64,000 bases of DNA from Minisyncoccota bacterium (GCA_041658485.1 JBBAAE010000001.1:11889-75888); one strand, 5' to 3'. Shown: positions 3,364 through 61,119, counted from the first letter of the stretch. Numbers and translations are program-made. Notes: a model not told the origin generated them from the letters alone.

Positions 3364-4011
3364 TTAATCAGTTAAGGTTCGCAAATCATCAGTCGCCACC
3401 GACGCATTCTCATCTTGCGCACGGTGCGTGAACACAGTGATAAGAATAAAAAATGCTAAGAGGTCAAAAAACGATCCAATTTCAAAAAGAAACGGCATGC
3501 CGTGCGTGAGCGCCAACCCGAATGTGAAGATGCCATTCTCCATAACAAAGAATCCAATTCCTTCCCCAAACATATCTTTTCGCGAAACCAACATAAGAAG
3601 GCCGACGAGCACAATGCCAAATGATGCAGCGAGCACAAAGTAATCAGCACCAACGGGCAATAACCCACGTGCTCCGATCAGAGCAACAATAGCCAGACAC
3701 GCCGCAACGAAAGAAAGTGTTGCGGGACGTGCATATGATTGCAGGCGCTCAGATGCTCCACTCACACGCGCCGCACGAAGCAAAAACGAAGGAATAAACC
3801 AAACTTTAATAAGAACAATAAGACCTGCAACAATAAAAAGTTGGAATTCCCCCGTTACAAATGCTGCAGCAATAGCGAGGAGTGCAAGAAGCGCTGACTG
3901 TACTCGAAATGCAGTTACCAAAGACCCCAAGCGCATGCGACTACTCATAAGAAACGCTAGGAAAAACATTCCTCCAGCAAACACTGTCATGGCAGTTGCG
4001 ATTGGTGTCAT
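3364..4011 (-). CDS. Small polytopic membrane subunit, HyfE-like (hydrogenase-4 component E-like)
   Basis: 215 aa, about six hydrophobic helices, sits between the NuoH-like and NuoN-like genes as hyfE does in hyf operons. Assigned by size and context only. Confidence 0.4.
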   Translation of the reverse strand: MTPIATAMTVFAGGMFFLAFLMSSRMRLGSLVTAFRVQSALLALLAIAAAFVTGEFQLFIVAGLIVLIKVWFIPSFLLRAARVSGASERLQSYARPATLSFVAACLAIVALIGARGLLPVGADYFVLAASFGIVLVGLLMLVSRKDMFGEGIGFFVMENGIFTFGLALTHGMPFLFEIGSFFDLLAFFILITVFTHRAQDENASVATDDLRTLTD

Positions 4012-4012
4012 A

Positions 4013-4993
4013 TTAGTGATAGAGGACGATTAACTCAACGGCAAGTCCGAGGAGCGCAATAAAGAATGCGAGCATCATATACTCCTGCATCCGATAAAAA
4101 CGCATCTTCACAATCACTGATTCTATAAAAGCAATTGCAAAAGCCCCGAGTGCAAGTTTTCCGAAAAATGCAATTAGTGCGACCCCAAGCCCAAAGAATG
4201 TAACCGGTGGAGCACTAATCCCAAATGGAATGAGGATACCCATACACACCGCCAAGAGCGCGGTTAACTTTATTGCTGATGCATACTCGAGCATTGCAAG
4301 ATATGTTCCTGAATACTCTAAGATCATAGCTTCGTGCACCATGGTGAGCTCAAGATGTGTCGCGGGATTATCTACTGGGTAGCGTGCATTTTCGGCAAGC
4401 AACACAAATAAAAATCCAATGAGCGTGACGATGACAGGAGGAACAGCGACCAACCACGGCAGTGATGTGAAGTGTCCAATAATGCCTCCCATGCCCCATG
4501 CGCCCGTAGCAAGTGCAAGGGTTGCAAGCGATACATAGAATGCTGGCTCAACGAGAGCAGCGAGCGTCATCTCACGGCTCGAACCCATGTTGCCAAACGT
4601 ACTTCCCGTATCCATACCTCCAAGCACCAAAAATACTGAACCAAGCGCCACTACTGCACCAAAAAGAAAAATATTATCGAGCGAACTTGGCACAATTCCA
4701 AAAAAGAGTGAGGGTACGACGAGAGCAAGGAAGAATGCACTTCCCAAGACCACAAATGGAACTACGCGAAATACCCATGAACTATGTTTTGTAATCGTCA
4801 TCTCTTTTCGGAGGAGCGAAAGCATTGAGACATAGGGCAAAAATATCGATGGTCCTTGGCGATTTTGAAAACGAGCTTTCAACGTGCGAACCATTCCCAC
4901 GACTAACGGTGCGGAAAGAAGTACCACGAGAGCTTGAAATGTAATAAGAAGGTACGTCATAGAGTAGTAGCGAGAGTGAGCACCAGTGCGCAA
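4013..4993 (-). CDS. NuoH/HycD-family membrane subunit
   Basis: KARFQNRQGPSIFLPYVSMLSLLRKE matches the NuoH/HycD signature (Q.R.GP....G.lQ..aD..KLl.KE). Polytopic. The true start is probably the internal Met (MTYLLITF), since the ORF overlaps the upstream gene by 37 nt. Confidence 0.7.
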   Translation of the reverse strand: MRTGAHSRYYSMTYLLITFQALVVLLSAPLVVGMVRTLKARFQNRQGPSIFLPYVSMLSLLRKEMTITKHSSWVFRVVPFVVLGSAFFLALVVPSLFFGIVPSSLDNIFLFGAVVALGSVFLVLGGMDTGSTFGNMGSSREMTLAALVEPAFYVSLATLALATGAWGMGGIIGHFTSLPWLVAVPPVIVTLIGFLFVLLAENARYPVDNPATHLELTMVHEAMILEYSGTYLAMLEYASAIKLTALLAVCMGILIPFGISAPPVTFFGLGVALIAFFGKLALGAFAIAFIESVIVKMRFYRMQEYMMLAFFIALLGLAVELIVLYH

Positions 4994-6963
4994 ATAACTA
5001 GAAGGAGGTACAACTGAATAACGCCATTCTGGAGTTTTTTAACCGCATGTGAAACAGCAAAGACCGCAATACCAATCGGGCGATAGAGCCAATACTCAAA
5101 AAAGGATTGAATGCTCCACACAAGACGCCGACGCACAATCCAGGGATTACTCATTGAAATAGGCTCAATGATTAATTCTTTCTCCGACATGAGAATTGAT
5201 TTGAAGAAAAATCTAATCGGCGCTGAAAAACCAGTTGCAGTGTACTGCATCCGAGGAGTTATAGGTTGCCCACAATCCCACGTATCCGTGATGCGGGCAG
5301 GATTTCTGTTAGAAAGAAATCGACGAAATACCATGAGAAGCACCCCAATAGAGAGAACACTCAAAAGCACCCACCATGCGTTCATAGAAGCTCCACCTAA
5401 AACTGCAACATCTCCAAAAAGTGTCATACCTTCCGTGAAGGCATTCGGCGCACTGAGGATCGGGAACAAAAACAATCCTGCAGTGATTGAAAGAAGTACG
5501 GAAGATAGTGGCGGAAGCCAAAGCAGTATCGGCATTGGGGACACCTGCTCTGCGTGGGTCGTGCGTGCTCGTCCAAGAAAGATTGCACTAAACATGCGGA
5601 CATATGCAAAAAGCGCGAGCCCGCCAACCAAAGCAAGGAGAGCGAGTATCAGTGCAAAACTTCCTCCAAAAAGAGCGGAAACAGTCATACCGCTTGCAAG
5701 CGTCTGAAAATATGTCCACTCACCAAAAAAGGTACCGAATGGGGGCAACGCAGCAGCTGCAAGAGAAAGTGCAAGAAATATTCCTGCAAAAATTGGCCAA
5801 CGCTGTGCAAGACCCCCTAGCTCGTCGAGATTTCGTGTATGTGTTTTTGATGCCACAGCACCAACTGCCATGAATAGCCCTGTCTTGAAAATAAAATGGT
5901 TCACGGTATGAAGAATTATGAAAAGAGCAATGGATGGTGCAATTGCGGAAACAGCACTATCTGGAGATCCGTGTACAAGGAGGTATATTCCAACAGCAGA
6001 AAAGATGAGCCCCATATTTTCTATACTGCTCCATGCAAGGACGCGCTTTGCGTCATTCTCAACTGCAGCGCGAAGCGCACCAAAAAATGCTGAGAGAAGG
6101 CCAATACCAATAACGAGGAATGCTGAGAAAGACGGAACAAATGGGAATAGTGCTACTCCTTGAATGAAACCAAAGAGTGCCACTTTAAGCATGACACCAG
6201 AGAGAAGCGCGGAGCTTCCACTTGGTGCTTGTGGGTGCGCATAGGGCAACCACTGATGAAGTGGCACTAAACCTGCTTTCGAACCAAACCCCGCGAAGAG
6301 AAGCACAAATGCAACAGAGATGGCGAGTGGTGTGGCACTAAGAGCAGAGAGTGCAACATCATGCCACGACGCAAAAAGATTACCTCCTGCAAGAAGAAGA
6401 AGCCCTGCTGCAATACAAGCAAACCCAATGTGAGTCATCACAAAGTAGAGCCATCCTGCACGGAGTGACTCATCACTCCTATCTGCGATAACCAAGAAAT
6501 ATGCGGAGACTGACATAATTTCCCAAGCCATCAGGAAAGTAAAAAGCGATGGGGAAAGGATCGTTGCTTGCATCCCTACAATAAAAAATGCCGAGGCAAC
6601 ATTGAGCGTTGGCAACACGTACACATCCTTATATGGTGGCAAGCTCTGAATCGCATAGAGCGAGGTTAGAAGGACGCCTCCGTACACCAGCATAAGGAAA
6701 AACACCTGCATTGAGTTAAGTGCAATGTTCACCAACCCAAAGAACGTAGCATTGAAAGACGCACTATTCCCTATTCCTAAAAGAGCAAAAAAATAACTGC
6801 CAGCAATCAGGCCAGCAAAACCCGACAAAATAAATATCGATTGCACCAGCGTGTTGTTCCAAGAAAAACGGCGGGTCAGAAGAGAAAGAACTACCCCTAC
6901 AAGTGGGAGCACGAATGCTACAGCAAAAAGACAGTCGATAGTGAAGGAGGACATAAGGTGCAT
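4957..6963 (-). CDS. NuoL/HyfB-like large antiporter-type membrane subunit
   Basis: 668 aa (E. coli HyfB is 672), polytopic, with the NuoL-family motif WLPYAHPQAPSGSSALLSG. Confidence 0.75.
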   Translation of the reverse strand: MHLMSSFTIDCLFAVAFVLPLVGVVLSLLTRRFSWNNTLVQSIFILSGFAGLIAGSYFFALLGIGNSASFNATFFGLVNIALNSMQVFFLMLVYGGVLLTSLYAIQSLPPYKDVYVLPTLNVASAFFIVGMQATILSPSLFTFLMAWEIMSVSAYFLVIADRSDESLRAGWLYFVMTHIGFACIAAGLLLLAGGNLFASWHDVALSALSATPLAISVAFVLLFAGFGSKAGLVPLHQWLPYAHPQAPSGSSALLSGVMLKVALFGFIQGVALFPFVPSFSAFLVIGIGLLSAFFGALRAAVENDAKRVLAWSSIENMGLIFSAVGIYLLVHGSPDSAVSAIAPSIALFIILHTVNHFIFKTGLFMAVGAVASKTHTRNLDELGGLAQRWPIFAGIFLALSLAAAALPPFGTFFGEWTYFQTLASGMTVSALFGGSFALILALLALVGGLALFAYVRMFSAIFLGRARTTHAEQVSPMPILLWLPPLSSVLLSITAGLFLFPILSAPNAFTEGMTLFGDVAVLGGASMNAWWVLLSVLSIGVLLMVFRRFLSNRNPARITDTWDCGQPITPRMQYTATGFSAPIRFFFKSILMSEKELIIEPISMSNPWIVRRRLVWSIQSFFEYWLYRPIGIAVFAVSHAVKKLQNGVIQLYLLLVICALVLTLATTL

Positions 6964-12740: not shown

Positions 12741-12851
12741 GCTTTAGTGGCTAGGGTTTAGCGTTTAGGGGAGAACGAATTGAAAAATCCTGATCCCTAC
12801 GAATCCGACGAAGCATCGTCTAAACCCTGACCACTAAACGCTAGCCCCTAG
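12741..12851. repeat. Pair of inverted G-triplet repeat units (GGGTTTAGCGTTTAGGG family) flanking a 47-nt spacer
   Basis: Left unit ctttagtggctagggtttagcgtttagggg (12741-12770); right unit ctaaaccctgaccactaaacgctagcccctagc (12819-12851). Lies between the TraD-like stop and the ndk start. Confidence 0.6.
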
Positions 12852-18837: not shown

Positions 18838-18864
18838 ATTTTTGCTATTTAGAAGCTACACACA

Positions 18865-18883
18865 AACGCTAGCCACTAAACCT
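18865..18883. repeat. G-triplet intergenic repeat unit (AAACGCTAGCCACTAAACC)
   Basis: Lies in the 50-nt spacer between the secY stop and the gmk start. Confidence 0.5.
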
Positions 18884-18887
18884 TGTC

Positions 18888-20159: not shown

Positions 20160-20171
20160 GGTAACCAGTGT

Positions 20172-20681
20172 TTAGCTTTTAGCTTTTAGCGAAGAGACAG
20201 CTTTCTTAGAAGGCATAACCTTCTTTGAAACAGGGGCGCGGACAGCACCTCCTGCTTTCTCAATTGTAGCTCGTGCTACTTCAGAGATGAAAACATCCTC
20301 AAAAGAGAGCTTCACGGTGAGTTCACCTCGCGCAAGAACTTTTATTGGAGGAACCTTACCGGAAATGCGTCGTACAACTCCAGCCTTTACGAGTGCGATA
20401 GGAGTAACGATATCCCCTGCCTTAAATTGTCTTGAGAGCGTATCGAAGTTCACCGTAGCAAATCTAACGCGAGGGACTGCGGTTCGAGAACGATTTCTAC
20501 CATACCCACGGCGTTTTGGAATTTTCTTGATTATATCTCGCCATTCTGGACGAAATTTTGCGCCAGCGCGTGATTTCTGACCTTTAGCACCACGACCAGA
20601 TGTCTTACCTCGTTTTCCTCCACGACCAACACGACGGCTTGTCGCATTACTCTTTGTTCGTGCCAATGTGTGAAGTTCCAT
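20172..20681 (-). CDS. rplO: 50S ribosomal protein L15
   Basis: RRVGRGGKRGKTSGRGAKGQKSRAG. Confidence 0.9.
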   Translation of the reverse strand: MELHTLARTKSNATSRRVGRGGKRGKTSGRGAKGQKSRAGAKFRPEWRDIIKKIPKRRGYGRNRSRTAVPRVRFATVNFDTLSRQFKAGDIVTPIALVKAGVVRRISGKVPPIKVLARGELTVKLSFEDVFISEVARATIEKAGGAVRAPVSKKVMPSKKAVSSLKAKS

Positions 20682-24732: not shown

Positions 24733-24785
24733 ATTGTTTTTGTTTTTGTGTTTTTCTTCTCTCCTCCCTAAAAGCTAAAAGCTTC

Positions 24786-27080: not shown

Positions 27081-27440
27081 TTACTTCTTTGCGGGAGCCT
27101 TAGCTTTACCGTCGGCTGGAGACTTAGCTGCTTGGGCTGCTGCAATTTCAGATTCTTTCTTCTTCTGCTCAAGTTCTTTCTGCATCTTACCTCCGTGACG
27201 AGTAAATTTCGTTGTTGATGAAAATTCACCAAGACGATGCCCTACCATTTCTTCTGTAACAAATACCTCAGGGAAATCCTTTCCGTTATGGACAAGAAAA
27301 ACAAAACCAACCATTTCAGGACTGATTTCAGATGCACGAGCCCATGTTTTAATAGGCGCCGTTGTTGCAGGCTTCTTGCCTTCAATCTTCTTTAGAAGCT
27401 TGTGGGCGACATACGGACCTTTTTTAAGTGAACGAGACAT
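27081..27440 (-). CDS. rpsS: 30S ribosomal protein S19 with Lys/Ala-rich C-terminal tail
   Basis: [20 protein letters not shown]...[26 protein letters not shown]. Confidence 0.9.
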
Positions 27441-27538
27441 TGTTGTAGTTTTGACCCAAATGAAGTGCGCACTAAGAAAAATGCGCCCTTACGAGCTTTG
27501 GGCATACTATCCCAATCACCCACTCACTGTCAACATCA

Positions 27539-27566
27539 TTTGTGCAACCTCCGGAGGTTGCACAAA
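27539..27566. repeat. Perfect 28-nt palindrome TTTGTGCAACCTCCGGAGGTTGCACAAA
   Basis: Read in sequence, 21 nt beyond the stop of the Y1 transposase gene. It recurs at 28301-28334. Confidence 0.85.
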
Positions 27567-27587
27567 TGACATATCGTATAAAAAAAA

Positions 27588-28286
27588 TTACAAAATAATA
27601 ATGCCTTCAAGCTCCTCAGCTAAAAGTTTTTTGTTGGTTGTTTTAACAAAATCAGCGTAATTACTTTTTGCTGTTATGGCAAACTGCCCTGTAATGATTT
27701 CGGGCACTATGAGTCCTCCCCATCGGTTTGCATCAGTAAAATCTTGGAGCGACGACCAAGGATATTCAAATTCCTTTCCTGACCATTCTCGTGTATCACG
27801 AGGGTTTCTATGAATGTAGGCGGATGTGTAGAGAAGTTGAGAGTCTGTCTTTACATGCACCGCTTTATACGGACCCTGAAATACATGCCCAGTGGCGTCA
27901 TATTTAACATTATAATATTTTGTATATCCATCAGACACACGTTGCATATAGCGTGCGATTCCACCTTCAATAGTTTCTTTGACCAGTAAGTGAAAATGGT
28001 TGGACATCAGACAAAAACAAACCACTTCTACAAAACGACTCTCGATAATGGACTCGATATCTTCGTTAGGAACAGAAAAACCAATATCCGGAACAAAACT
28101 TTCCGTAATGCGATGTATATTTTTAAACTCGTGCGGGGATTGGAGAAACAGCACATTAAAAAGGAATCGCCGCCAATCGTTTTTTTCTTTAAAAACCGTT
28201 TGTCGGTGAGCTCCGCGATTAAAAATATGGTAGTACTCCCCTGGAGCAATTCCTTCTCGCGATTTTAGTAATACTTTAGGCATCAA
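27588..28286 (-). CDS. IS200/IS605-family (REP-associated tyrosine transposase, RAYT-like) Y1 transposase
   Basis: 232 aa. EYYHIFNRGAHRQTVF opening block, CLMSNHFHLLVKE (HuH motif), GHVFQGPYKAVHV with the catalytic Tyr region. This is the typical Y1_Tnp / RAYT layout. Confidence 0.75.
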   Translation of the reverse strand: MMPKVLLKSREGIAPGEYYHIFNRGAHRQTVFKEKNDWRRFLFNVLFLQSPHEFKNIHRITESFVPDIGFSVPNEDIESIIESRFVEVVCFCLMSNHFHLLVKETIEGGIARYMQRVSDGYTKYYNVKYDATGHVFQGPYKAVHVKTDSQLLYTSAYIHRNPRDTREWSGKEFEYPWSSLQDFTDANRWGGLIVPEIITGQFAITAKSNYADFVKTTNKKLLAEELEGIIIL

Positions 28287-28300
28287 TGTAGACTAACACG

Positions 28301-28334
28301 CCCCTTGTGCAACCTCCGGAGGTTGCACAAGGGG
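28301..28334. repeat. Second copy of the palindrome, extended: CCCCTTGTGCAACCTCCGGAGGTTGCACAAGGGG
   Basis: Read in sequence, 15 nt upstream of the transposase start codon. It has the same 24-nt core as the copy at 27539-27566. Confidence 0.85.
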
Positions 28335-28360
28335 CTCGAAACCAAAAATATTTGCCGAGA

Positions 28361-31300
28361 TTAAAACTCGTCGAAGCGCGGAGTAACACCTATGGTCACT
28401 GACTTTGAACTCGGAACCCCACCGGTCAAACAATTCATTGTGTATGTACTTTGTTGATTTATGATCACAGATTGTGCGCCTGAAAAAGCTGTTGAAGAAA
28501 GCCCAGGGCCAGAAATCGAACAAGAGTCAGGAGTGCCCACCACTCCCCATGACACCGTTGCAGGGTCGCCTTGGCGAACAGTAACGGCTGGGCTAATGCT
28601 GAGAGCAATATCAGCAGGGTTTACAGTAACTGTTGCACTTGAAGATGCACTTCTCGTACCGTTTGTACAAGTGATGCCGTAGGTTGTAGTAACTGGAGGG
28701 GAAACAGTAACCGAACCAACGGTTGCACTCCCTGTTGGGAAGTTAGTTCCTGTACAAGAAGTGGCGTAAGAAGATGTCCAGTCAATGCGTGGAGAAGTTA
28801 CACCTTTAATTATTACGTTTGGTGTAACAGTAATGAGCACCGTGGGAGTGTTCTGTATAGTTCCCGCTGCACATGTCGCAGTAACTGACCCTGCACCTGA
28901 GGTCACAATAACTGAAGCCGATTTCGTACCGGCAGTAGCGTATGTTTTCGAGACAGTTACACCTGTGCCGAGAAGTCCGTCAGTGCCACTCCAGACATAT
29001 GTATATGAACCTACACCACCAGAAGGTGTGACGGTCCACGTTAATGAATCTCCCACATACCCAGTACTTGGTGATGGAGAACATGATGCTGTCACTGCAC
29101 CCGGGTTTACAGTTAATGATGTCCATACACTACAGTTATCAAGCTCATTGGATTCGTTCACTTCATTGAGTGGTGTATCAGCACAAAAACGCATCTGGTA
29201 CGAACCCGGTGAAGGAAATGTGTAGCTTCCTGTTTGAGTACCACTGCCCCCAGCTACAATCGATATTCGACTTAAAGCAATTTTAATTGACGTATTGGCT
29301 TCCGCAAAATTAATAAAGAAACTAAAGATGCGACTCCAAATAGAGTCTGACTTGGTGAGATAATTATTGAGACAAGCACTGTCCGAAGTGAGACACACAT
29401 ACATCCTTGAACCAAAAACTGGAGTCGCTGCCCCACCACGATTAGTAACGCCAGCGGTAAATGTGGTATTTACTCCCGCAGTTACACTGGCAGGAGAGAG
29501 AGACCCTGTAGTTAAATCCGCCAAAGAAACACCAACTACAACAGAGTTTGAACAACTCGCCGTAACTGATGCATTCGATGCAGTTGCCATACCTGCCAAA
29601 TAATTATGTCTCGTTGTACTACCGCTCGTTGAGGTTTTCGAGGCAAGAGAAGCATTCGAATATGCTTCGTAGCGATAGTAGGTATTAACAGGTTGCCCAG
29701 CTGAATTCAAAGTCTCTCGCACATCAACACTACAGCAACCGCCTGCTGGGGTTATACCTGCGCACACTCCTGCCATAGAGCTAGTGTTGAGAGTAAATCC
29801 AACACCATCCTCGGTAGTACCATAACTACCTACTTTCGTACCTCCAGAACAATGCTTTTCCCCTTGAAGCGTAACAGAAGTTGCGCCGGAAGGGCTAGTG
29901 ATAGTGATTGAGGCTGTTTTTGTACCGACAGTTGTATATGTTTTTGAAATAGATGCAACGGCACCCGAGAGACTATCAGTACCACTCCATGAATACGTGT
30001 ATGAACCGGCTCCACCCCATGCAGAGGCAGTCCAAGTTACAGGACTACCGGTGTATACACTTGTTGGCGATACTGAACATGACCCAGAAAGAGCGCCGGA
30101 GGAGGTTGAATTTACTTGAACATTTGCGGTAGCGAAAGCGGTCTGAGGAGTCACGGCAGGAGAGGCGCCGACACATGAATAGATATCAGTATTGATGCTG
30201 CATGCACTGATGGTGTTCACCTTACACGTTGGGATACTACAAGTCTTTCCTGTTGGATTCGAAGGGCAAGTTGGTACGCTTGAATATGCCTTGTTTGGAT
30301 CTGTGAGCGGGCAAGCAAAATCACTTATATCAGACTCTGAATATTGCCATGTACCTGACGATACTGCGCTAGCTCCTGTACAGGTGATGGAGTAGTTTGT
30401 ACTAGCACTTAACGCTCCGGTAGAAATAGAGCCTGATGTATTCCCGCCAGTTTCAAATCCACTACCAACACAAGAAACTGCATTAGTTGAGGACCATGTG
30501 AGAGTAGCGGAAGATCCAGAATTCAAACTTGTTGGAGTTGCAGAGAGTGAAACCGTTGGCGAAGGGATTGAACTTACAGTGACCGTTTGGGATGCCGCCG
30601 CAGAACCGCCAGCGCCAGTACATGAGACAAGATAACTTGTTGTTTGCGATGGGATAACTGTTACAGAGCCTGCAGTTGCCGACGCTGTCGAAAAATTGGT
30701 TCCTGTACAGGAAGTTGCGTTCGTTGAACTCCAAGTAATAACTGACGAGGCACCTGCGACAAGAGAGGTTGGATTTGCAGAGAGCGTTGCCGTTGGCGCT
30801 GCAGGAAGATTCACGGTCACCGTCCGAGATGCAGACGCAGAACCACCAGCGCCAGTACATGAAACGAGGTAACTGGTTGTTTGTGACGGGACCACCGTTA
30901 CGGAACCTGCAGTTGCTGATGCTGTCGAAAAGTTAGTGCCCGTGCAGGATGTTGCGTTAGTTGAACTCCAAGTTATTACCGATGATGCACCTAATATAAA
31001 GGAGGTTGGATTTGCAGAGAGTGAGGCAGTTGGGGCAACAACAGGAGCACTGACAGTCACCGTTGCGGAAGAAGAAATTGTCTGGGCACCATCGGTACAG
31101 GTAATTAAGTAGGCTACTGAAGAAGATGGTGAGACAATAAGCGAGCCTGAAGTAGCGCCACTAGTTGAAAAATTAGTGCCCGTACATGAGGTTACATAGT
31201 CCGAACTCCATGTTAAAAGAGACGAACCTCCACTAGTTATGGAAGCAGGTGTCGCAATAATTCCAACATACGGCGCTGTTGGCTCTTCGATACAACCCTC

Positions 31301-31597
31301 ATCCATGTCGCCAACAGTTGCGGTCTGATAGGCACTTTGCACTGTATAACTATCTCCACCATACACTGCATAAAAGGCCGCGGCACCTCCACTGCCCGGG
31401 GGGAATGGATTAGTTACTACAGTGTAGGAGTATTCCCATATCGAACCACTACACCCTCCGACACCACCTCCTCCACCATCCATGTTTGGTGCAGCGTATA
31501 CCGATTGAGGAATTATACTGAGTACCGCAACTACAAAGACAGCAACCACAAAAAAGCTTTTAAAAGTGCGGGCAACAAACTGGCGGAAGGCTATCAT
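28361..31597 (-). CDS. Giant secreted Thr/Ser-rich repeat-domain protein (surface or S-layer-like candidate)
   Basis: 1078 aa. Signal peptide MIAFRQFVARTFKSFFVVAVFVVAVLSIIPQSVYA, followed by poly-Gly. At least six copies of a ~75-90-aa module (xTPTSLxxGxSSxxTWSSTNATSCTGTNFSTxxATxGSxTVxPSQTTSYxVxCTGAGGS). A Cys-rich central module (GTWQYSESDISDFACP...CKVNT...YSC). PKD-like GSYTYSWSGTD modules. Many N-x-S/T sequons. C-terminal tail ...PRFDEF. Confidence 0.8.
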   Translation of the reverse strand: MIAFRQFVARTFKSFFVVAVFVVAVLSIIPQSVYAAPNMDGGGGGVGGCSGSIWEYSYTVVTNPFPPGSGGAAAFYAVYGGDSYTVQSAYQTATVGDMDEGCIEEPTAPYVGIIATPASITSGGSSLLTWSSDYVTSCTGTNFSTSGATSGSLIVSPSSSVAYLITCTDGAQTISSSATVTVSAPVVAPTASLSANPTSFILGASSVITWSSTNATSCTGTNFSTASATAGSVTVVPSQTTSYLVSCTGAGGSASASRTVTVNLPAAPTATLSANPTSLVAGASSVITWSSTNATSCTGTNFSTASATAGSVTVIPSQTTSYLVSCTGAGGSAAASQTVTVSSIPSPTVSLSATPTSLNSGSSATLTWSSTNAVSCVGSGFETGGNTSGSISTGALSASTNYSITCTGASAVSSGTWQYSESDISDFACPLTDPNKAYSSVPTCPSNPTGKTCSIPTCKVNTISACSINTDIYSCVGASPAVTPQTAFATANVQVNSTSSGALSGSCSVSPTSVYTGSPVTWTASAWGGAGSYTYSWSGTDSLSGAVASISKTYTTVGTKTASITITSPSGATSVTLQGEKHCSGGTKVGSYGTTEDGVGFTLNTSSMAGVCAGITPAGGCCSVDVRETLNSAGQPVNTYYRYEAYSNASLASKTSTSGSTTRHNYLAGMATASNASVTASCSNSVVVGVSLADLTTGSLSPASVTAGVNTTFTAGVTNRGGAATPVFGSRMYVCLTSDSACLNNYLTKSDSIWSRIFSFFINFAEANTSIKIALSRISIVAGGSGTQTGSYTFPSPGSYQMRFCADTPLNEVNESNELDNCSVWTSLTVNPGAVTASCSPSPSTGYVGDSLTWTVTPSGGVGSYTYVWSGTDGLLGTGVTVSKTYATAGTKSASVIVTSGAGSVTATCAAGTIQNTPTVLITVTPNVIIKGVTSPRIDWTSSYATSCTGTNFPTGSATVGSVTVSPPVTTTYGITCTNGTRSASSSATVTVNPADIALSISPAVTVRQGDPATVSWGVVGTPDSCSISGPGLSSTAFSGAQSVIINQQSTYTMNCLTGGVPSSKSVTIGVTPRFDEF
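30590..31130. repeat. Near-identical in-frame tandem DNA repeats (~270 bp, about 90% identity) inside the giant gene
   Basis: Two successive ~90-aa modules (...SLSANPTSFILGASSVITWSSTNATSCTGTNFSTASATAGSVTVVPSQTTSYLVSCTGAGGSASASRTVTV / ...TLSANPTSLVAGASSVITWSSTNATSCTGTNFSTASATAGSVTVIPSQTTSYLVSCTGAGGSAAASQTVTV) encoded by nearly identical DNA. Confidence 0.6.
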
Positions 31598-31654
31598 TCC
31601 ATCTATTGTACAGGGAATTCATACTTGCTGTTAAGAGAAATTTGTGAGGGGTGG

Positions 31655-31688
31655 AGTAATAAAAACTCTCCAGGTAATGGGGAGTTTT
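31655..31688. terminator. Bidirectional rho-independent terminator between the two giant genes
   Basis: aaaaACTCTCCaggtaatGGGGAGTttttttatttc. Confidence 0.5.
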
Positions 31689-31847
31689 TTATTTCAGCTC
31701 CCTGATTTGCGTTGCTTGCCCCATCATTAGAATTTGGCGTTACTCCTTATAGTGAAGTATTAGACGTTTTAGACACCGACCACACGGTCGTGAATCTGTG
31801 ATTTGCAGTATCCCGTACATCGAAACAATCTATTACGCACCTGTGTA

Positions 31848-34325
31848 TCAAAACTCTTCGTATGCTGGTAGCAGTTTGACTGTTATTGATTTTGAAGTGG
31901 TCCCTCCACCTGTCGTACATGAGAACGTATAGGTACTTTCTTGACCTATAATGACACTTTGCGAACCTGAAAAAGAACCTGATGAGAGCCCTGGGCCACT
32001 CATGAGACACGAATCAGGACTTCCTGATACTGACCAGTTAATAATTACCGAATCATTACGACGAACTGAAGTGTTTGGGGATGCAGTAAGCACTAGATCC
32101 GCTACATATACTGTAACGACCGCGCTCGAGTAAGCACTTTTTGATGCGTTCGTGCACGTAAGGTTATAGGTAGTGGTGTTAGTTGGTGTTACCGATAGAG
32201 CGCCAGACGTTTGGCCTCCTGTTGCAAAATTAGTGCTTGTGCACGATGTTGCGTTTGTCGAAGACCACGTAAGTTGCGACGCATTTTGCCCGCGAATAAT
32301 TGAGCTCGGGGTCGCACTTAAAAGTGCCGTAGGAGAAGCTGAGATTGAGGTTGAATTGCTACATGCTTGAGTAACAGACTGTGTGCCTGAAGCAACAATC
32401 ACAGAGCCGGCTTTGGTTCCCACTGTTGTGTATTGCTTCACAACCGATTGCGTTGTTCCTGATAAACCATCTGTACCACTCCACGAATACGTATAGGAAC
32501 CGGTGCCCCCCGCAGGAGACGCTGTCCACGTTATGTTGTCATTTGTATACCCCGAGGTGGGAGCAACAGCGCAGGAGGTATTAAGTGATGGAATTGCGAC
32601 GGTCACAGCAGTCCACGCACCACAATTATTTGTTTCATTGGACTCGTTGATAACGCCGGAACCCGTAGATGAGTTTTTGTCAGCACATGCACGCACGTAC
32701 CACGTACCTGCCGAAGGGAACGCGTACGAAAAAGTAGTTGCCTCAGAACTATTCGTCGAAATGTTTGGTGACATACCAGTGCCAATATCTTCTGTATTCG
32801 CACCACTTGAAGATGTAGCTCGCTGAAAAAGATTGATGAACTCTCCTCCTGTCGCAGGGTTACCTGCATTCGTGATTGTTGCGGAAAATGTTTTTGCGAC
32901 GTTAGTAATTGCGGAGGTTGGTGAAATGGCGCTCGCACTAAGATCGGACAACACTACACTCACTGCAACAGAATTTGAACAACTCACTCCCGCCGAGTTA
33001 CCGCCCGAAGTAATTGTCACTGCACCACTCTTCGTACCAGTGGTTGAGTATGTTTTGGATACCGATGCACCTGTGCCAGAAAGACTATCGGTACCACTCC
33101 ACGAATACGTATACGAACCGGTGCCACCCGATGCAGATGCAATCCAAGTAACCATCTCTTCCGTATACACACTTGTGGGAGACACTGCACACGATGCCGT
33201 AAGGGGCGTACTTGAAACAGTAACGTACGCACTGCCCGATACACTTGGCGGAGGCGATGTTACTTGGCACGAATACAAGTCCGTAGTGATACCACATCCG
33301 GGACCGATTGTGTTTACTTTACACGTTGAAGGAGGTGAGGTGCATGATTTACCTTGAGGACTCGCTGGGCAATCTGGTACAGAACTATAAACATTGTTGC
33401 TGGATGATACAGGGCACGATAGATCCGAGTAATCACTTTGATAGTATTGCCATGTTCCAGTGCCACTCCCCGAAGAACCCGTGCATGTAAGCGTGTAATT
33501 TGTGCTAGCGTTTGGCGTAATGGTGATCGAGCCCGATGTGGCGCCAGCGGTATCAAATTGAGTGCTCGAGCAATACGAAGTATTGCTCGAAGTCCACGAA
33601 AGCGTTGTACTCCCTCCCGCGGTAACCGAGGAGGGAGACGCGGTCAACAATATACTTGGCGACGAACTTGGGGGCGTTACCGTAAGAGTCGCCGAGCCTT
33701 GCGCTGTACCTCCAGCACCAGTACAACTTACTGAATACGTTGTAGTTTGCGACGGTGAAACAGAAACTGTACCAGAGAGTGCTCCGCCCGTACTGAATCC
33801 CGTTCCCGTACATGATGTTGCATTTGTGGAACTCCACGTGAGTGCAGATGAGTACCCTGCCGAAATGGACGTGGGCGCTAGAGATATTGACGTGGTTGGT
33901 GCGGGAGAAGCGTTGATATAGGTAAGTGCATATGTCTTAGTTGCACTTGCCGTGCCGGCGCCACTATACATTTTATAGAGTATGTTCCAACTGCCGCTGT
34001 TCGACGTTAATTCTCCTTGAATACAGTACGAGCCTGGAGTGTTATAGCCACTTGGGATGAGAGTGCCATCTATAAACCCCCACGCGAGAATGCTCCACGA
34101 CGGTGCAGACGGTGGCGACAAGTCCCCCTCACCACCGAGATTCGCCACAAACGCCCCCGTACATTTTGTATTTGCACTGGTAACGGCGCCAGAAGAAGTT
34201 GGTGGATTGGGGTAGGCGTACGCCTCCGCAAAAGAGACAGAAACGCTTCCCACAAAAACGGCCGCGATTAAAAAACTTCCGAATGTTTTCAAAACAAAAG
34301 ATGTAATCGGTGTGAGCGAGTTCAT
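31848..34325 (-). CDS. Giant secreted Thr/Ser-rich repeat-domain protein, paralog of 28361-31597
   Basis: 825 aa. Signal peptide ...VSVSFAEA. Same module types as its neighbour (SLAPTSISAGYSSALTWSSTNATSCTGTGFSTGG...; central GTWQYYQSDYSDLSCP...CKVNTIG...YSC; GSYTYSWSGTDSLSGT). C-terminal tail ...LLPAYEEF. Confidence 0.8.
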   Translation of the reverse strand: MNSLTPITSFVLKTFGSFLIAAVFVGSVSVSFAEAYAYPNPPTSSGAVTSANTKCTGAFVANLGGEGDLSPPSAPSWSILAWGFIDGTLIPSGYNTPGSYCIQGELTSNSGSWNILYKMYSGAGTASATKTYALTYINASPAPTTSISLAPTSISAGYSSALTWSSTNATSCTGTGFSTGGALSGTVSVSPSQTTTYSVSCTGAGGTAQGSATLTVTPPSSSPSILLTASPSSVTAGGSTTLSWTSSNTSYCSSTQFDTAGATSGSITITPNASTNYTLTCTGSSGSGTGTWQYYQSDYSDLSCPVSSSNNVYSSVPDCPASPQGKSCTSPPSTCKVNTIGPGCGITTDLYSCQVTSPPPSVSGSAYVTVSSTPLTASCAVSPTSVYTEEMVTWIASASGGTGSYTYSWSGTDSLSGTGASVSKTYSTTGTKSGAVTITSGGNSAGVSCSNSVAVSVVLSDLSASAISPTSAITNVAKTFSATITNAGNPATGGEFINLFQRATSSSGANTEDIGTGMSPNISTNSSEATTFSYAFPSAGTWYVRACADKNSSTGSGVINESNETNNCGAWTAVTVAIPSLNTSCAVAPTSGYTNDNITWTASPAGGTGSYTYSWSGTDGLSGTTQSVVKQYTTVGTKAGSVIVASGTQSVTQACSNSTSISASPTALLSATPSSIIRGQNASQLTWSSTNATSCTSTNFATGGQTSGALSVTPTNTTTYNLTCTNASKSAYSSAVVTVYVADLVLTASPNTSVRRNDSVIINWSVSGSPDSCLMSGPGLSSGSFSGSQSVIIGQESTYTFSCTTGGGTTSKSITVKLLPAYEEF

Positions 34326-34336
34326 ATCATTACATG

Positions 34337-34999
34337 TTATTTGATGTCTGATTTGGAATATGTAACAGAACCCAAATGTCGTACGCCAGTTCGAATATCA
34401 TACAGCTCAAAGGAATTTGGACGACCGGTGTGCATGACGATGGTCGCGGGTGACGCGAAACCGACGGCAATGAGGTAGGTTGGCAAATTCGGGATTTTGA
34501 ATGAACCACGATACGAGACGCTCGCGCCACCGTCATACACCTTGAACACATCAAATTGGTTGGTGACCTGATTGAACAATACCGCAGCACTTCCGTCAGG
34601 AGCAACGGCACCAACATCAGGAGTAATGCCTTCTTGCGCAATGAGCACAAGTTCACTTTTTGCTTTCGGATTACGCCAGACTAGCCCTTTCTCGGTAACT
34701 ACAAGAATCATACCGCTCGGAAGTGTAACGTTATTTGAGACTGAGAGAGTTTGTTGTGGTGCCGTGGCAGTATGCACTTCATTCGCAGAATTCAAGGCAT
34801 ACCACCGATAAGTATCAGTTTCATACATTGAAAATACTTGATCTGCCATTCGCTCGTTCGCCTCTTTTGGTATCCATTCAGAAAAAAATGTACGTAGAAT
34901 AGGGACCGCATACAACAGACCGCTCAATGCACCCAAAATGAGCGCAATAGAAAGTGTGATACGCATTGGTCGAGAGAGTCTCTGTACTATCTGACTCAT
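34337..34999 (-). CDS. Hypothetical membrane-anchored protein
   Basis: 220 aa, one N-terminal transmembrane helix (ITLSIALILGALSGLLYAV), no family recognised. First gene of the accessory island downstream of rplB. Confidence 0.45.
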   Translation of the reverse strand: MSQIVQRLSRPMRITLSIALILGALSGLLYAVPILRTFFSEWIPKEANERMADQVFSMYETDTYRWYALNSANEVHTATAPQQTLSVSNNVTLPSGMILVVTEKGLVWRNPKAKSELVLIAQEGITPDVGAVAPDGSAAVLFNQVTNQFDVFKVYDGGASVSYRGSFKIPNLPTYLIAVGFASPATIVMHTGRPNSFELYDIRTGVRHLGSVTYSKSDIK

Positions 35000-35039
35000 A
35001 CTCTCAGCAGTCTACAACGAAAAGATAGCACCCCTTAAA

Positions 35040-35072
35040 AAAACACCCCGCATGATGCAGGGTGTTGGTGGA
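35040..35072 (-). terminator. Rho-independent terminator immediately after rplB
   Basis: Minus-strand reading: CACCCTGCATCATGCGGGGTGttttttt. Related in sequence to the hairpin at 37779-37812. Confidence 0.55.
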
Positions 35073-35074
35073 TA

Positions 35075-35938
35075 TTACGCGCCTTTCGTTCTTTTTTTCC
35101 CGACACGACGACGAGAAACAATGAAGGGATTCGAGTATTTCTTTGGAGTTCGTGTCTTTTGTCCCTTTCCAGATGGCTTACCCCACATGGTGCGTTGTCT
35201 GCGGTGACCACGGCCTTGACGACCTTCACCTCCTCCATGTGGATGGTCAACTGGGTTCATTGCAGTACCACGAACCGTTGGGCGAATACCCATGTGTCGT
35301 GCACGACCTGCTTTACCAATGATAACGAGATGGTGCGCATCGTTTGAAACTTCACCAATCGATGCCCATGCGGTATCAACAACTTTTCGAACTTCAGTCG
35401 AAGGGAGTTTTATTTGAGCGTAGCCAGCATCGAGCGCGATCAACTCAGCGTGGTTACCTGCACTTCGTGCCATTTTTGCACCACCGTTTGCATGTACTTC
35501 AATGTTGTAAATGAATGTGCCGATTGGAATGTTCTTCAAAGGAAGACGGTTACCGGGAGTGATAGGCGCAGTCTCTGAAGTAATAACCTTATCGCCGACT
35601 TTCAAAGATTTAGGTGCAAGGATGTATCGGCGCTCACCGTCAACATCTACAATACGAGCAATGAAACCTGTACGAGTAGGATCGTATTCAATGTGCTCAA
35701 CTTTGCCTGGGATATTCTTCTTAGCGAACATGAAGTCAACCACACGCATCTGTTGCTTGTGTCCACCTCCTTGGTGACGTGTGGTGATGCGACCGAGTGA
35801 GTTTCTACCTGCGTGATTTTTCTTTCCTTTCGTCAAAGACTTCAAGGGCTTCCCGGTCGTCAAAACATCGCGGTAACGAATCACGCTCATGTGGCGAGTA
35901 GATGCGGTTCGTGCTTTGTAATTTCGTGTAGTAGACAT
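35075..35938 (-). CDS. rplB: 50S ribosomal protein L2
   Basis: GRNSLGRITTRHQGGGHKQQMRVVDF...GRARHMGIRPTVRGTAMNPVDHPHGGGEG. Confidence 0.93.
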   Translation of the reverse strand: MSTTRNYKARTASTRHMSVIRYRDVLTTGKPLKSLTKGKKNHAGRNSLGRITTRHQGGGHKQQMRVVDFMFAKKNIPGKVEHIEYDPTRTGFIARIVDVDGERRYILAPKSLKVGDKVITSETAPITPGNRLPLKNIPIGTFIYNIEVHANGGAKMARSAGNHAELIALDAGYAQIKLPSTEVRKVVDTAWASIGEVSNDAHHLVIIGKAGRARHMGIRPTVRGTAMNPVDHPHGGGEGRQGRGHRRQRTMWGKPSGKGQKTRTPKKYSNPFIVSRRRVGKKRTKGA

Positions 35939-37638: not shown

Positions 37639-37778
37639 TTTGTGAAAAGAAAAACGCGCACTAGTATTTCGCAGTGCGCGATATACCATTGGTCCGAAAG
37701 TAGCCTATTGGGCTTCCGTACGTAGCGTTTCGACTACTATACACAAAGCATCTAAAAGATGCAAGAAAACTCAAAACA

Positions 37779-37812
37779 ACAAAAAACACCCCATGCAGGG
37801 GTGTTTTTTGTT
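37779..37812. terminator. Terminator/attenuator-like hairpin between rpsJ and rplC
   Basis: aaaaaaCACCCCatgcaGGGGTGttttttgttgttttt, with T-runs on both strands. Confidence 0.5.
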
Positions 37813-37828
37813 GTTTTTAAAAATTCAA

Positions 37829-38224
37829 TTAAAGCATTCTGACATCAACCGAGACGCCTGATGGAAGCGAAAGGTTCGTCAAAGCATCAATGATTTTTGG
37901 TGTTGGATTCAGAATGTCCAAGATGCGCTTATGAGTACGAATCTCAAACTGCTCACGAGCATCTTTGTAGACGAACGATGAAGCATTGACCGTGAATTTC
38001 TTGATATCAGTTGGAAGTGGAATGGGCCCTACAACCTCCGCATCAAAGCGAAGCGCTGTGTCAATAATTTGCTTTACCGAAGCATCCAAGACTTTGTGGT
38101 CATATGCGCGAACACGGAGACGCAATTTGCCTACACCTCCTGCTGGAGCAGCAGCTTTCGCTGTCTTTGCTCCTGCTTTTGGTGCCTTGCGGACAGGCGT
38201 CTTTTTTTCTTTAGTGTCGGACAT
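37829..38224 (-). CDS. rpsJ: 30S ribosomal protein S10 (Lys/Ala-rich N-terminal extension)
   Basis: LRLRVRAYDHKVLDASVKQIIDTALRFDAEVVGPIPLPT...RTHKRILDI. Confidence 0.9.
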   Translation of the reverse strand: MSDTKEKKTPVRKAPKAGAKTAKAAAPAGGVGKLRLRVRAYDHKVLDASVKQIIDTALRFDAEVVGPIPLPTDIKKFTVNASSFVYKDAREQFEIRTHKRILDILNPTPKIIDALTNLSLPSGVSVDVRML

Positions 38225-44332: not shown

Positions 44333-44346
44333 ATTTAGCTAGCCAG

Positions 44347-44404
44347 TAGGGTATAGGGTATAGGGTAACAGCATTAAAATCTAGTGGCTAAACCCTAGTG
44401 GCTA
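44347..44404. repeat. (TAGGGTA)x3 tandem plus a CTAGTGGCTAAACCCTAGTGGCTA unit of the G-triplet repeat family
   Basis: Divergent spacer between the site-2 protease and the TrmH-family methyltransferase. Confidence 0.55.
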
Positions 44405-47351: not shown

Positions 47352-47380
47352 CACCTAAACGCTAACCACTACCCCCCTAG
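47352..47380. repeat. G-triplet family repeat unit (CACCTAAACGCTAACCACTACCCCCCTAG)
   Basis: Divergent spacer between the ComEC-MBL gene and sod. Confidence 0.5.
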
Positions 47381-47961: not shown

Positions 47962-49324
47962 ACCGGAACACCAACAAGCCTACAGTTGCATACAAAAACC
48001 CGAGCACCATTAAAAGTGGCCACATCCACTCTCGTGGAATAGGGAGCGATGCAAACGGCAATGAGCCGAAAAATGTTGCTATAGAAATAATATAGGAAAG
48101 AATTCCATAGCCGAGAATACTTAAGGGGAAAGCGAATATCGGCGAGAGAAGTGCAGTAATCGATGCGAAAAATCCAACAAACATTGCAATCGGAACTGCA
48201 GGAAGAACCAAAACATTAGCGGGCAAAAAAACTAATGACACCGCTCCGATAGAAAATATAAGAAGTGGTAACACGGTCACTTGTGTTGCCAGAGTCGTCG
48301 ACACAATTTCCCGAAACGGGAAATATTTAAAGTCAGGAATGAACTTCAAACGACTCGCGATTGTTTCAGAGAAAAGTATAAGTCCGAGCGTTGCAAGAAT
48401 GGAGAGTTGGAATGAAAGGTCATAGAGAACGATGTACGGATTCCACAAAGCCATCACCGCCGCCGCAATTGCGAGCATGCGGAGTGCTACTTTTGGTCGA
48501 TGCAACACAGTAGCAACCATCATTAAGAGCGCCATGATGAGGGCTCTGATTGTAGTCTCGGAGCCACCGGTCATGATCGCAAAGCCAATAACAAAAAGTG
48601 CAGAGAAGCCGTATGCAACAGTTCGTGGAAATATTTTTAAAAATATAAATAAAATCCATTGAATAACCAGCGCGACATTGTATCCAGAGAGAACAATAAT
48701 ATGTATCACACCGGCACTTCGAAAGAATCCTGTTATTTTTTCACCTAACGATTGTTTTTCACCAAGAAGCAAGCCAGCAAGAAGTGCAGATTGAGGTTCT
48801 GGCACTGCGCGCTCAATTCCTTTAATAAATAAATGTTTAACAGATAGAAGCCCTGCAACAATTACATTTCCCTCCCCAGTTCTGAGTTTCGTAACCTGCG
48901 GGAATGAAATTGTGTAGAAAATACTATGCGCACGAAGATACTTTGGATAATTAAATGTCCGTCCTGAGTCAGTTTCAAATGGTTCAGGCTTTTTAAGTTT
49001 TCCTTTTACACTAACGCGATCCCCATAGACGGCCGTCTCAAACGAATCCGCAAAGAGAAGTACTCTCACTTTTTCTGCAACAGAAACACCATTCAACTTT
49101 TCCACTTTCACAACAAGATGTGTGGTGCGTTCACGCTGGTCGGGGTCTCTCACCACTACACCCTCGACAACGACACTAGTATCAACTGAATCTTCAAAAA
49201 TCGAAGGAAATTTTTCAGGCACAAGGACTGAATACGCCCCTGCACCAATAACAACCGCGATACAAAGTAGCGGTACGAAATTTCGAATTAAAAAGTCCCT
49301 TAAAAATTCTGTATGATATATCAT
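47915..49324 (-). CDS. comEC: ComEC/Rec2 DNA-uptake channel protein (N-terminal DUF4131 plus competence domain only)
   Basis: 469 aa. N-terminal transmembrane and OB-like region, then a polytopic domain with LLAGLLLGEKQSLGEKITGFFRSAGVIHIIVLSGYNVALV. It lacks the MBL domain, which is encoded separately at 46465-47301. Confidence 0.75.
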   Translation of the reverse strand: MIYHTEFLRDFLIRNFVPLLCIAVVIGAGAYSVLVPEKFPSIFEDSVDTSVVVEGVVVRDPDQRERTTHLVVKVEKLNGVSVAEKVRVLLFADSFETAVYGDRVSVKGKLKKPEPFETDSGRTFNYPKYLRAHSIFYTISFPQVTKLRTGEGNVIVAGLLSVKHLFIKGIERAVPEPQSALLAGLLLGEKQSLGEKITGFFRSAGVIHIIVLSGYNVALVIQWILFIFLKIFPRTVAYGFSALFVIGFAIMTGGSETTIRALIMALLMMVATVLHRPKVALRMLAIAAAVMALWNPYIVLYDLSFQLSILATLGLILFSETIASRLKFIPDFKYFPFREIVSTTLATQVTVLPLLIFSIGAVSLVFLPANVLVLPAVPIAMFVGFFASITALLSPIFAFPLSILGYGILSYIISIATFFGSLPFASLPIPREWMWPLLMVLGFLYATVGLLVFRFRKEIALGSKHHSNS

Positions 49325-49364
49325 ACAGAATTTTTAAGGGAGGAATATAAAGACATACTGGGAA

Positions 49365-54970: not shown

Positions 54971-54995
54971 CGAGAAATCGTAACACGATTGAGGA

Positions 54996-55059
54996 GGGTT
55001 TAGTGGTTAGCGTTTAGGGGTTAGTTTTCTCTAAACACTGCCCACTAAACGCTAAACCC
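54996..55059. repeat. Inverted pair of G-triplet repeat units separated by 6 nt
   Basis: gggtttagtggttagcgtttaggggttag / ctaaacactgcccactaaacgctaaaccc, between the tpiA start and the downstream gene stop. Confidence 0.6.
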
Positions 55060-55064
55060 TTTTG

Positions 55065-56246: not shown

Positions 56247-56270
56247 AAACCCCCGTGCACTTCTTATGCT

Positions 56271-56306
56271 CCCCCCTAAACTCTCCCCCCTAAACGCTAA
56301 ACCCTG
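56271..56306. repeat. G-triplet family repeat unit (CCCCCCTAAACTCTCCCCCCTAAACGCTAAACCCTG)
   Basis: Spacer between the prepilin gene stop and the 55065 gene. Confidence 0.5.
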
Positions 56307-60363: not shown

Positions 60364-60391
60364 TCTTTGGTAAGAATAACATTGCGAAGCA

Positions 60392-61090: not shown

Positions 61091-61119
61091 AAAATGGAGA
61101 GAAACTCAATCTTTCTTAT

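Follow-up and report, generated by a model that had tools for sequence, protein, structure and literature searches.

The 64,000-nucleotide stretch of Minisyncoccota DNA analyzed here (GCA_041658485.1, JBBAAE010000001.1:11889-75888; hereafter, the window) carries a 7.6-kb gap between rplB (protein L2) and rpsS (S19), two genes of the S10 operon, and this gap contains four non-ribosomal open reading frames (ORFs). No gene arrangement of prokaryotes is more conserved than the S10-spc cluster. We found that the rplB|rpsS break is lineage-wide in the window's clade of the Candidate Phyla Radiation (CPR)/Patescibacteria (Paceibacteria-like), and is not a private insertion. Throughout this clade, the S10 operon contains an accessory slot, of which the island in the window is the largest example seen. 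The explanation that we consider probable combines an old and stable break of the operon that serves as the slot, a Y1 transposase-like gene inherited vertically within it, and the assembly of a composite island by recombination.

Organization of the locus

All genes in question lie on the minus strand, in the order tuf, rpsJ, rplC, rplD, rplW, rplB, the four non-ribosomal ORFs and rpsS, with rplV, rpsC, rplP, rpmC, rpsQ, rplN, rplX and rplE downstream. The gap is bounded by rplB (35075-35938; TIGR01171 equivalog, 352 bits), which has the C-terminal tail ...GKKRTKGA* and is the last gene of the predicted upstream transcription unit, and by rpsS (27081-27440; TIGR01050 equivalog, 112 bits), the first gene of the predicted downstream unit. 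Between them lie hyp220 (34337-34999), which has no family match; giant A (31848-34325; 825 aa, CARDB and PKD matches); giant B (28361-31597; 1078 aa, PKD and CARDB matches); and a Y1_Tnp ORF, hereafter Y1 (27588-28286; 232 aa, PF01797). The adjacency of rplB and rpsS that marks the canonical S10 operon is absent here, given the 7.6-kb gap, a predicted terminator after rplB and a predicted promoter before rpsS. A first-pass annotation made from the sequence of the window had placed four non-ribosomal genes at essentially these coordinates; it had also proposed strong terminators after rplB and between the two giant genes that would split the operon transcriptionally, secreted and paralogous giant proteins, and an IS200/RAYT-like transposase with flanking palindromes. 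All these readings are borne out by the results below: both terminators are energetically strong, and the operon is predicted to be transcriptionally split.

The closest genome is that of locus L004 (metagenome-assembled genome FW305_bin.14, Patescibacteria, SCTS01000006.1; the compared loci are denoted by L numbers), which is collinear with the window at approximately 91-94% DNA identity. The L2 protein of the window is 99% identical to that of L004, and the next species representatives, labeled Paceibacterota, Kaiserbacteria and Zambryskiibacteria, are at 61-66%. Searches with L2 in genome and metagenome scans returned no relative at 73%-99% identity, and the intermediate relatives discussed below were recovered solely via homologues of hyp220 and Y1. 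Base composition was tried as a sign of foreign origin and is uninformative, because the GC fraction of the island (0.42-0.52, with giants that are Ser/Thr/Gly-rich) overlaps that of the flanks (0.40-0.49).

The rplB|rpsS break across genomes

In the junction survey, 15 ribosomal proteins were placed in 163 loci and every junction was measured. Genomes with L2 57-75% identical to that of the window were taken as the clade, and genomes with L2 less than 57% identical as the outgroup. The L2|S19 gap of the outgroup (n = 130) has a median of 1 bp and a maximum of 126 bp, and is the tightest of the junctions there. For the clade (n = 18), the median gap is 610 bp and the maximum 2256 bp, with 14 of the 18 gaps longer than 150 bp; the other clade junctions have medians of 6-91 bp, and S10|L3 is a weaker second hotspot, where 5 of 12 gaps exceed 150 bp. 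The clade gaps carry genes for a diacylglycerol kinase (DAGK, L014), a DUF5674 protein (L008), a Phd/YefM antitoxin (L092), an antisense DUF3298 membrane protein (L085, L086) and coiled-coil proteins (L010, L085). The cargo genes of different clade genomes are mutually unrelated, and the signals of the break are present in genomes with other cargo as well as in those with almost no cargo.

These signals consist of a terminator, a promoter and a leader hairpin. An intrinsic terminator is predicted directly after rplB in the window (35042-35066, minus strand), with the hairpin AACACCCTGCATCATGCGGGGTGTT followed by a U-run, a folding energy of -17.2 kcal/mol and z = -6.4. A canonical terminator within 90 nt past the rplB stop codon is found in 14 of 24 clade genomes, compared to 2 of 133 outgroup genomes. 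Upstream of rpsS, there is a predicted promoter (27504-27533, minus strand) of the form TTGACA, N16-18, GATAGTAT; a promoter score of at least 9 out of 12 within 180 nt of rpsS was obtained for 19 of 19 clade genomes, compared to 5 of 128 outgroup genomes. Even in the clade members with tight junctions (L087, L088, L093), the predicted promoter is fitted into or across the 3' end of rplB. The promoter-like sequence of the window lies between the right palindrome of Y1 and rpsS, outside the Y1 element, and can be aligned with that of relatives lacking Y1; judged from these alignments, the putative rpsS promoter is the ancestral, clade-wide one.

The predicted rpsS transcript begins with a short hairpin, GCUC-GUAA-GGGC, followed by a U-run (27476-27496, minus strand). 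A short GC hairpin with a U-run occurs in 18 of 19 leaders, compared to 3.0 expected from dinucleotide shuffles. In 21 genomes, its start is 13-16 nt away from where the -10 box begins, and compensatory changes are seen in three of the four inner pairs. An Rfam scan of the whole window returned no family at the gathering score and recognized no RNA gene, although a dedicated tRNA scan was not run; because no Rfam leader model was matched in the window, the hairpin is not a described ribosomal protein leader. Since these signals are clade-wide, rpsS is predicted to be driven by the ancestral promoter with its conserved leader.

We propose that the upstream unit would end at the intrinsic terminator right behind rplB, and that the downstream unit, from rpsS onward, would start at its own strong sigma-70-type promoter, with the short hairpin and U-run transcribed first. 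Because DNA placed between these two signals would leave the expression of the ribosomal genes undisturbed, different cargo could accumulate in different lineages.

Two further promoter-like sites were read from the sequence inside the slot. A -10-like box TAGACT preceded by TTG (35009-35014, minus strand) lies upstream of hyp220 and is kept as TTGTA[GC]ACT in L164, L165, L167 and L168; it may represent a promoter with a very short leader. A promoter-like site TTAACA-N18-TACAAT (31605-31634, minus strand) precedes giant B and is conserved in L004 and L168.

A second break of the S10 operon lies at the rpsJ|rplC junction (37641-37829). Behind rpsJ, the predicted terminator is a very strong hairpin (37817-37773, -30 kcal/mol), followed by a promoter-like TTGCAT-N17-TATAGT, a leader hairpin with a U-run (37680-37655) and the likely start of rplC at 37641; L004 (7436-8299) has approximately 700 bp extra at this junction. 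The rplC leader hairpin (..ACTAGTGCGCG followed by UUUUU) is similar to those of rpsS in the window and in L164. The hairpin and U-run at the 5' end of rpsS, with the similar one at rplC, could be a new leader, either autoregulatory or an attenuator, whose evolution followed the fragmentation of the S10 operon.

A composite of two cassettes

Comparison to L004 reveals the structure of the island. L004 is without the segment that corresponds to window positions 35093-31712 (rplB tail, terminator, hyp220 and giant A), and keeps giant B (85% identical) and Y1 (89%). In the window, the region between giants A and B contains a relic of an older rplB 3' end (31694-31720, minus strand), which reads in frame as GKQRKSGS* and aligns with the 3' end of rplB in L004. 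This is followed by a relic rplB terminator (31661-31690, minus strand; hairpin and U-run, -10.5 kcal/mol, z = -4.5) that is orthologous to the terminator behind rplB in L004. The relic tail and terminator are together approximately 75% identical to the functional L004 sequence. The functional rplB tail is GKKRKSGS* in L004 and L171, both of which are type-B loci, and GKKRTKG[A/S]* in the window, L164, L165, L167 and L168.

The relic rplB tail and terminator upstream of giant B indicate that giant B was once directly behind rplB. The 7.6-kb island is a tandem composite of two cassettes. As for the direction and mechanism, the sequence suggests that a cassette comprising the new rplB tail, terminator, hyp220 and giant A recombined into an rplB-terminator-giant B-Y1 locus; this would have required a single crossover within rplB as well as an illegitimate join a few codons short of the old stop codon, after which the previous rplB tail and terminator remained between the giants as a relic. 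Because it is the 3' end of rplB that was left behind, recombination via the flanking rplB is indicated, rather than Y1 transposition. Tandem duplication was also considered as the origin of the giants and of the relic, and was rejected, given that identity is only 30-49% between types A and B but still approximately 75% between the relic and the functional rplB end of L004.

hyp220 and the giant proteins

Among 5.8 billion proteins, only five relatives of hyp220 were found, with identities of 100, 83, 80, 69 and 50%, and all five are encoded directly behind rplB and ahead of a giant CARDB/PKD gene. L164, L165 and L166, in which L2 is 87% identical to that of the window, have the order rplB-hyp220-giant-rpsS and lack the Y1 gene; L167 and L168 (L2 99-100% identical) likewise begin with rplB-hyp220-giant. 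The occurrence of the same arrangement without Y1 in L164, L165 and L166 implies that hyp220 with a giant is a lineage feature. The ratio of nonsynonymous to synonymous substitution rates (dN/dS) of hyp220 is approximately 0.28; its dS between the window and L167/L168 is 0.40-0.49, with an rplB dS of 0.42. The AlphaFold2 (AF2) model of hyp220, with a predicted local distance difference test score (pLDDT) of 75, has an N-terminal transmembrane helix (residues 10-42) and an all-beta domain, which forms a partial beta-propeller of approximately three to four blades. The Foldseek matches are seven-bladed propellers, including the archaeal YVTN+PKD S-layer protein 1L0Q. This predicted membrane-anchored half-propeller, which always accompanies type A, is probably the anchor or partner of giant A.

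Giants A and B are paralogous, with 46% identity over 404 aa, and represent two old types that are 30-49% identical to each other. Type A, with the mature N-terminus AYAYPNPPT..., always follows hyp220, and type B, with the N-terminus ...GGC..W.Y.YTVV.NP..., is always found ahead of Y1. All the giants have signal peptides, and these Ig-like-repeat proteins may be surface proteins or adhesins. Orthologues of giant A in L164, L165 and L168 have 959-1017 aa, and giant B contains a 237-nt tandem module (30591-31021). For giant B and its L004 orthologue, dN/dS is 0.14, with values of 0.00-0.04 for ribosomal genes.

Every giant (window, L004, L164-L171) ends in a C-terminal tail P-x-[FY]-x-E-[FI], represented by PRFDEF, PAYEEF, PAFEEF, PHFEEF and PRFQEI; in the window, giant A ends in ...PAYEEF (31848-31877) and giant B in ...PRFDEF (28361-28390). 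Its role may lie in sorting or anchoring, or in docking to hyp220.

It should be noted that public gene calls omit the giant ORFs (L001/L002, 3290-5767; L003; L167; L169-L171), such as the 825-aa gene, and that four to five short antisense ORFs (60-267 aa) are annotated in their place. The missed Ser/Thr/Gly-rich giant genes are a systematic gene-calling error.

A vertically inherited Y1 gene

The Y1 family has more than 1800 matches, all of approximately 220-235 aa and all from Patescibacteria. The Y1 of the window scores 35 bits against PF01797 (cut-off, 23 bits), and the HUH histidines H97/H99 and the catalytic Y157 are invariant in 47 family members. Its AF2 model has a pLDDT of 87, and the best Foldseek match in PDB is the RAYT-REP complex 4ER8 (E = 2.6e-5, TM-score 0.68 relative to the target), ahead of ISDra2 and IS608 by a modest margin; a PDB sequence search with Y1 yielded noise only. 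In 2.9 million viral contigs, there were only three weak matches to the family.

The genomic context of six homologues was determined. The order rplB-giant-Y1-rpsS is found for those 92% (L169) and 83% (L171) identical to the window Y1; rplB-Y1(antisense)-rpsS is found in L172 (73%), L174 (61%) and the closed 721-kb chromosome of L173 (CP174359.1; 56%); and L176 (53%) shows Y1(antisense)-rpsS at a contig end. Thus, Y1 adjoins rpsS in 6 of 6 sampled homologues. Across eight genomes, the distances between Y1 proteins correlate with those between ribosomal proteins (Mantel r = 0.945, 0 of 5000 permutations as high), with Y1 evolving approximately 1.7 times faster, and Y1 dN/dS is 0.05-0.08. In a neighbor-joining (NJ) tree of L2, S19, L22 and S3, the Y1-bearing genomes group together, with Y1 lost once within the group (L164/L165). 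The operon split extends through Y1-less sister groups and therefore predates Y1, and Y1 was rejected as the cause of the split because the split is found throughout these groups. We conclude that Y1 is an old, vertically inherited resident, rather than a hopping insertion sequence (IS) or an insertion vehicle. Under the proposed scenario, Y1 and its palindromes would descend from a single acquisition immediately upstream of the rpsS -35 box, and would have been inherited vertically since then, under purifying selection.

Y1 is flanked by two perfect palindromes. The left copy lies at 28301-28334 (core TTGTGCAACCTCCGGAGGTTGCACAA, 28305-28330; -33.6 kcal/mol), and the right copy, identical to the left one, at 27536-27569 (core 27540-27565), ending 2 nt from the rpsS -35 box. 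A search for the 26-nt palindrome TTGTGCAACCTCCGGAGGTTGCACAA with up to three mismatches found no third copy in the 64 kb, with 0 expected by chance. The palindrome reads ...CAACCTCCGGAGGTTG... in the window, L004 and L169, and ...CAACACCCGGGTGTTG... in L171; the sequences in L172, L173, L174 and L176 are different, although always perfect palindromes. Identical palindromes are present on both sides of Y1 in the window, L004, L169, L171 and L173, and a single palindrome in L172, L174 and L176. In all eight Y1-bearing lineages, the palindromes end 0-4 nt from the rpsS -35 box or overlap it. A palindrome is identical to its own inverted repeat, and Y1 would therefore be flipped by recombination between the two copies, which would explain the occurrence of Y1 in both sense and antisense orientations. 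The A-type and B-type spacers cannot be aligned, and the empty site of Y1 is not definable to the base.

In the public records of L174 (~3940-3950) and L175 (~2194-2209), runs of N fall exactly within the long palindrome that precedes the rpsS promoter, so that it is not fully legible there. In L173, the region between rplB and Y1 (4790-5340) contains two units of approximately 280 bp, each with a promoter-like site and an identical terminator AAAACCCGCTCTCAAGCGGGTTTT; these may be small RNA or peptide genes in the slot.

Alternative explanations

The first-pass annotation favored an insertion at this site, and a recent mobile-element event in which Y1 carried or mediated the whole island into an intact rplB-rpsS operon would fit with a Y1_Tnp gene and identical flanking palindromes at one end of the island, and with the different island content of the closest genome, L004. 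Nevertheless, we consider such an event very improbable. The annotation had proposed to look for the same palindrome at the rplB-side boundary, and there is none at or near it, even with three mismatches; the giants lie outside the palindrome-bounded unit; hyp220 and a giant occur without Y1 in L164-L166, and Y1 occurs without giants in L172 and L174; Y1 co-diverges with its host; and the trace of the latest rearrangement is an old rplB 3' end, not a transposon end. A one-off insertion into an intact operon is also contradicted by the terminator, promoter and leader that mark the break in the whole clade, including Y1-less sister groups and genomes with other or nearly no cargo. The annotation placed the rpsS promoter inside the island or the mobile element; a position within the mobile element does not agree with the location of the predicted promoter (27533-27504) outside the Y1 element and its homology to the promoter of Y1-less relatives. 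The opposite possibility raised in the annotation, that the genes are a conserved lineage feature rather than an insertion, holds in part, namely, for hyp220 with a giant in the absence of Y1. Its remaining alternative, a join of unrelated contigs inside the ribosomal cluster, might be suspected for a metagenomic source with repeat-rich giant genes that are hard to assemble. This is hardly conceivable, because the same gene order with 100% protein identity is found in three independent assemblies from different samples (ERZ27247322 k141_183048, SRR8449812 contigs and an 86.6-kb NCBI contig), which excludes a mis-join; homologous arrangements are present in at least eight other genomes, including the closed 721-kb chromosome, and the window is collinear with L004 on both sides.

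A purely vertical history, in which the ancestor already had rplB-hyp220-giant A-giant B-Y1-rpsS and only differential loss has occurred since, with neither import of cassettes nor recombination between alleles, deserves more weight, although we regard it as unlikely. It accommodates giant A followed by giant B in L168, the single loss of Y1 on the tree, and the similar dS of hyp220 and rplB between the window and L167/L168, which gives no sign of recent import among these three. However, it requires at least three independent losses of hyp220 with giant A (L004, L169/L171, L172) and a loss of giant B with Y1 in L164/L165. It also leaves the rplB tail and terminator upstream of giant B unexplained, so that some duplication or recombination of the rplB 3' end is required in any case, and, with an identity of only 30-49% between types A and B, their duplication is far too old to have produced the relic.

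Several points weigh against the scenario of an old slot with a resident Y1 and a composite island. L169 has a type-B locus but an RTKGA rplB tail, so that tail type and cassette type are not strictly linked, and the recombination may have brought A into a B locus or the reverse. The A-then-B order of L168 comes without a relic, and the pattern could in part reflect an ancestral A+B locus from which cassettes were lost differentially. The genomic context of Y1 comes from only 6 of more than 1800 homologues, chosen for their long contigs, and the clade was set by a threshold of L2 identity and a quick NJ tree of four proteins, rather than by a robust phylogeny. All promoters and terminators are consensus or energy predictions, and the perfect pairing of the leader hairpins is partly by construction, because the hairpins for the pair table were chosen by eye.

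Other features of the window

The S19 protein of the window has 119 aa, compared to approximately 92 aa in the bacterial model. The 3' end of its gene (27081-27170) encodes a Lys/Ala/Glu-rich C-terminal extension of approximately 30 aa that is present in close relatives, too. A 46-nt perfect palindrome without a spacer (TCCCTTAAAAATTCTGTATGATA / TATCATACAGAATTTTTAAGGGA) is located at 49296-49341. A family of intergenic repeats with no relation to the Y1 palindrome is also dispersed over the window; its heptamer-like units, TTTAGGG/TTTAGCG (complement CTAAACC/CTAAACG), occur in both orientations, at 12745-12849, 18855-18887, 20167-20195, 24760-24783, 44340-44379, 47354-47376, 54988-55060, 56269-56305, 60391-60436, 61115-61151 and 62365-62397.

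Discussion

In a large CPR clade, the junction of the S10-spc cluster that is tightest in the 130 outgroup genomes appears to have been turned into a stable, insulated slot, suggesting that the most constrained operon can be opened without harm to ribosome synthesis. The slot is a searchable landmark for fast-evolving surface proteins, which are prime candidates for host attachment in episymbiotic CPR bacteria. Y1 is a long-lived, site-fixed, transposase-like gene with intact catalytic residues and no visible population of repetitive extragenic palindromic (REP) sequences, and bears on the question of the domesticated role of the RAYT proteins. On the practical side, users of public gene calls at such loci should expect antisense fragments instead of the giant ORFs.

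We tentatively raise a further possibility, that Y1 and its palindromes are a domesticated HUH system that is tied to the site and binds or nicks the hairpin, together with a new rpsS/rplC leader. If so, Y1 could act in either or both of two ways. Binding of Y1 to the extruded hairpin could modulate or insulate transcription of the rpsS-led operon. Nicking of the hairpin could stimulate local recombination and yield a self-renewing hotspot for surface-protein cassettes, a Y1-based counterpart of integrons.

Comparison with known systems

Multigene insertions are known to separate parts of the translational-machinery supercluster in particular lineages (2019, PMC6735719; Brandis 2021, PMC8046335). 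The insertions described in these papers lie between operons, whereas the present break falls within the S10 operon itself, at the tightest of its junctions; it is a feature of the whole clade and is marked by a conserved, predicted terminator, promoter and leader of its own.

RAYT or TnpA-REP proteins (E. coli RayT, PDB 4ER8) are single-copy, vertically inherited and housekeeping-like, under purifying selection (Bertels et al. 2017, PMC5581495). The Y1 of the window resembles them in the HUH motif with a single catalytic Tyr, in the best fold match to 4ER8, in being apparently single-copy (one per locus), vertically inherited and under purifying selection, and in the flanking palindromic hairpins that co-evolve with the protein lineage. 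In contrast, there is no dispersed REP/REPIN population around Y1, with only the two flanking copies in 64 kb; Y1 has about 228 aa, compared to 165 aa in E. coli RayT; it scores 27.8 bits against NCBIfam NF047646 (REP_Tyr_transpos; cut-off, 80); and it has long been fixed at one site abutting the rpsS -35 box, inside the ribosomal cluster. In the open-access literature that we searched, neither fixation of a RAYT at such a site nor the rplB|rpsS break nor a Y1 fixed there is described.

The Y1 element is also similar to IS200, as an element of approximately 0.8 kb with a single Y1 tnpA-like gene and hairpin-forming palindromes near both ends. The upstream hairpin of IS200 blocks incoming transcription, and by analogy, that of Y1 could do the same. 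The left-end and right-end hairpins of the IS200/IS605 elements are distinct and imperfect, whereas the Y1 palindromes are perfect and identical at both ends where two are present, as in the window. Unlike IS200, Y1 shows no signs of mobility, with one copy, the same site in the sampled genomes, co-divergence with the host, and absence from viral contigs but for the three weak matches.

For the island as a whole, the test for a mobile island gave no integrase among the ORFs and no repeat common to both borders. The island is polymorphic in presence and absence among close relatives, with L004 lacking 35093-31712 and L167, L168, L169, L171 and L172 differing in content. Surface loci flanked by core genes, such as those for capsule and O-antigen, similarly carry alternative surface cassettes at one site between conserved genes. 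The likeness extends to the A-type and B-type cassettes at the same site, to the differences in content between close genomes, and to the recombination scar (31720-31661) derived from a flanking gene, rplB. The differences are that the flanking genes are here neighbors within the most conserved operon of bacteria, that the cargo consists of giant Ig-repeat proteins rather than polysaccharide biosynthesis genes, and that the cargo is functionally unrelated across the wider clade. As a whole, the island behaves like a variable surface locus between core genes that is remodeled by recombination.

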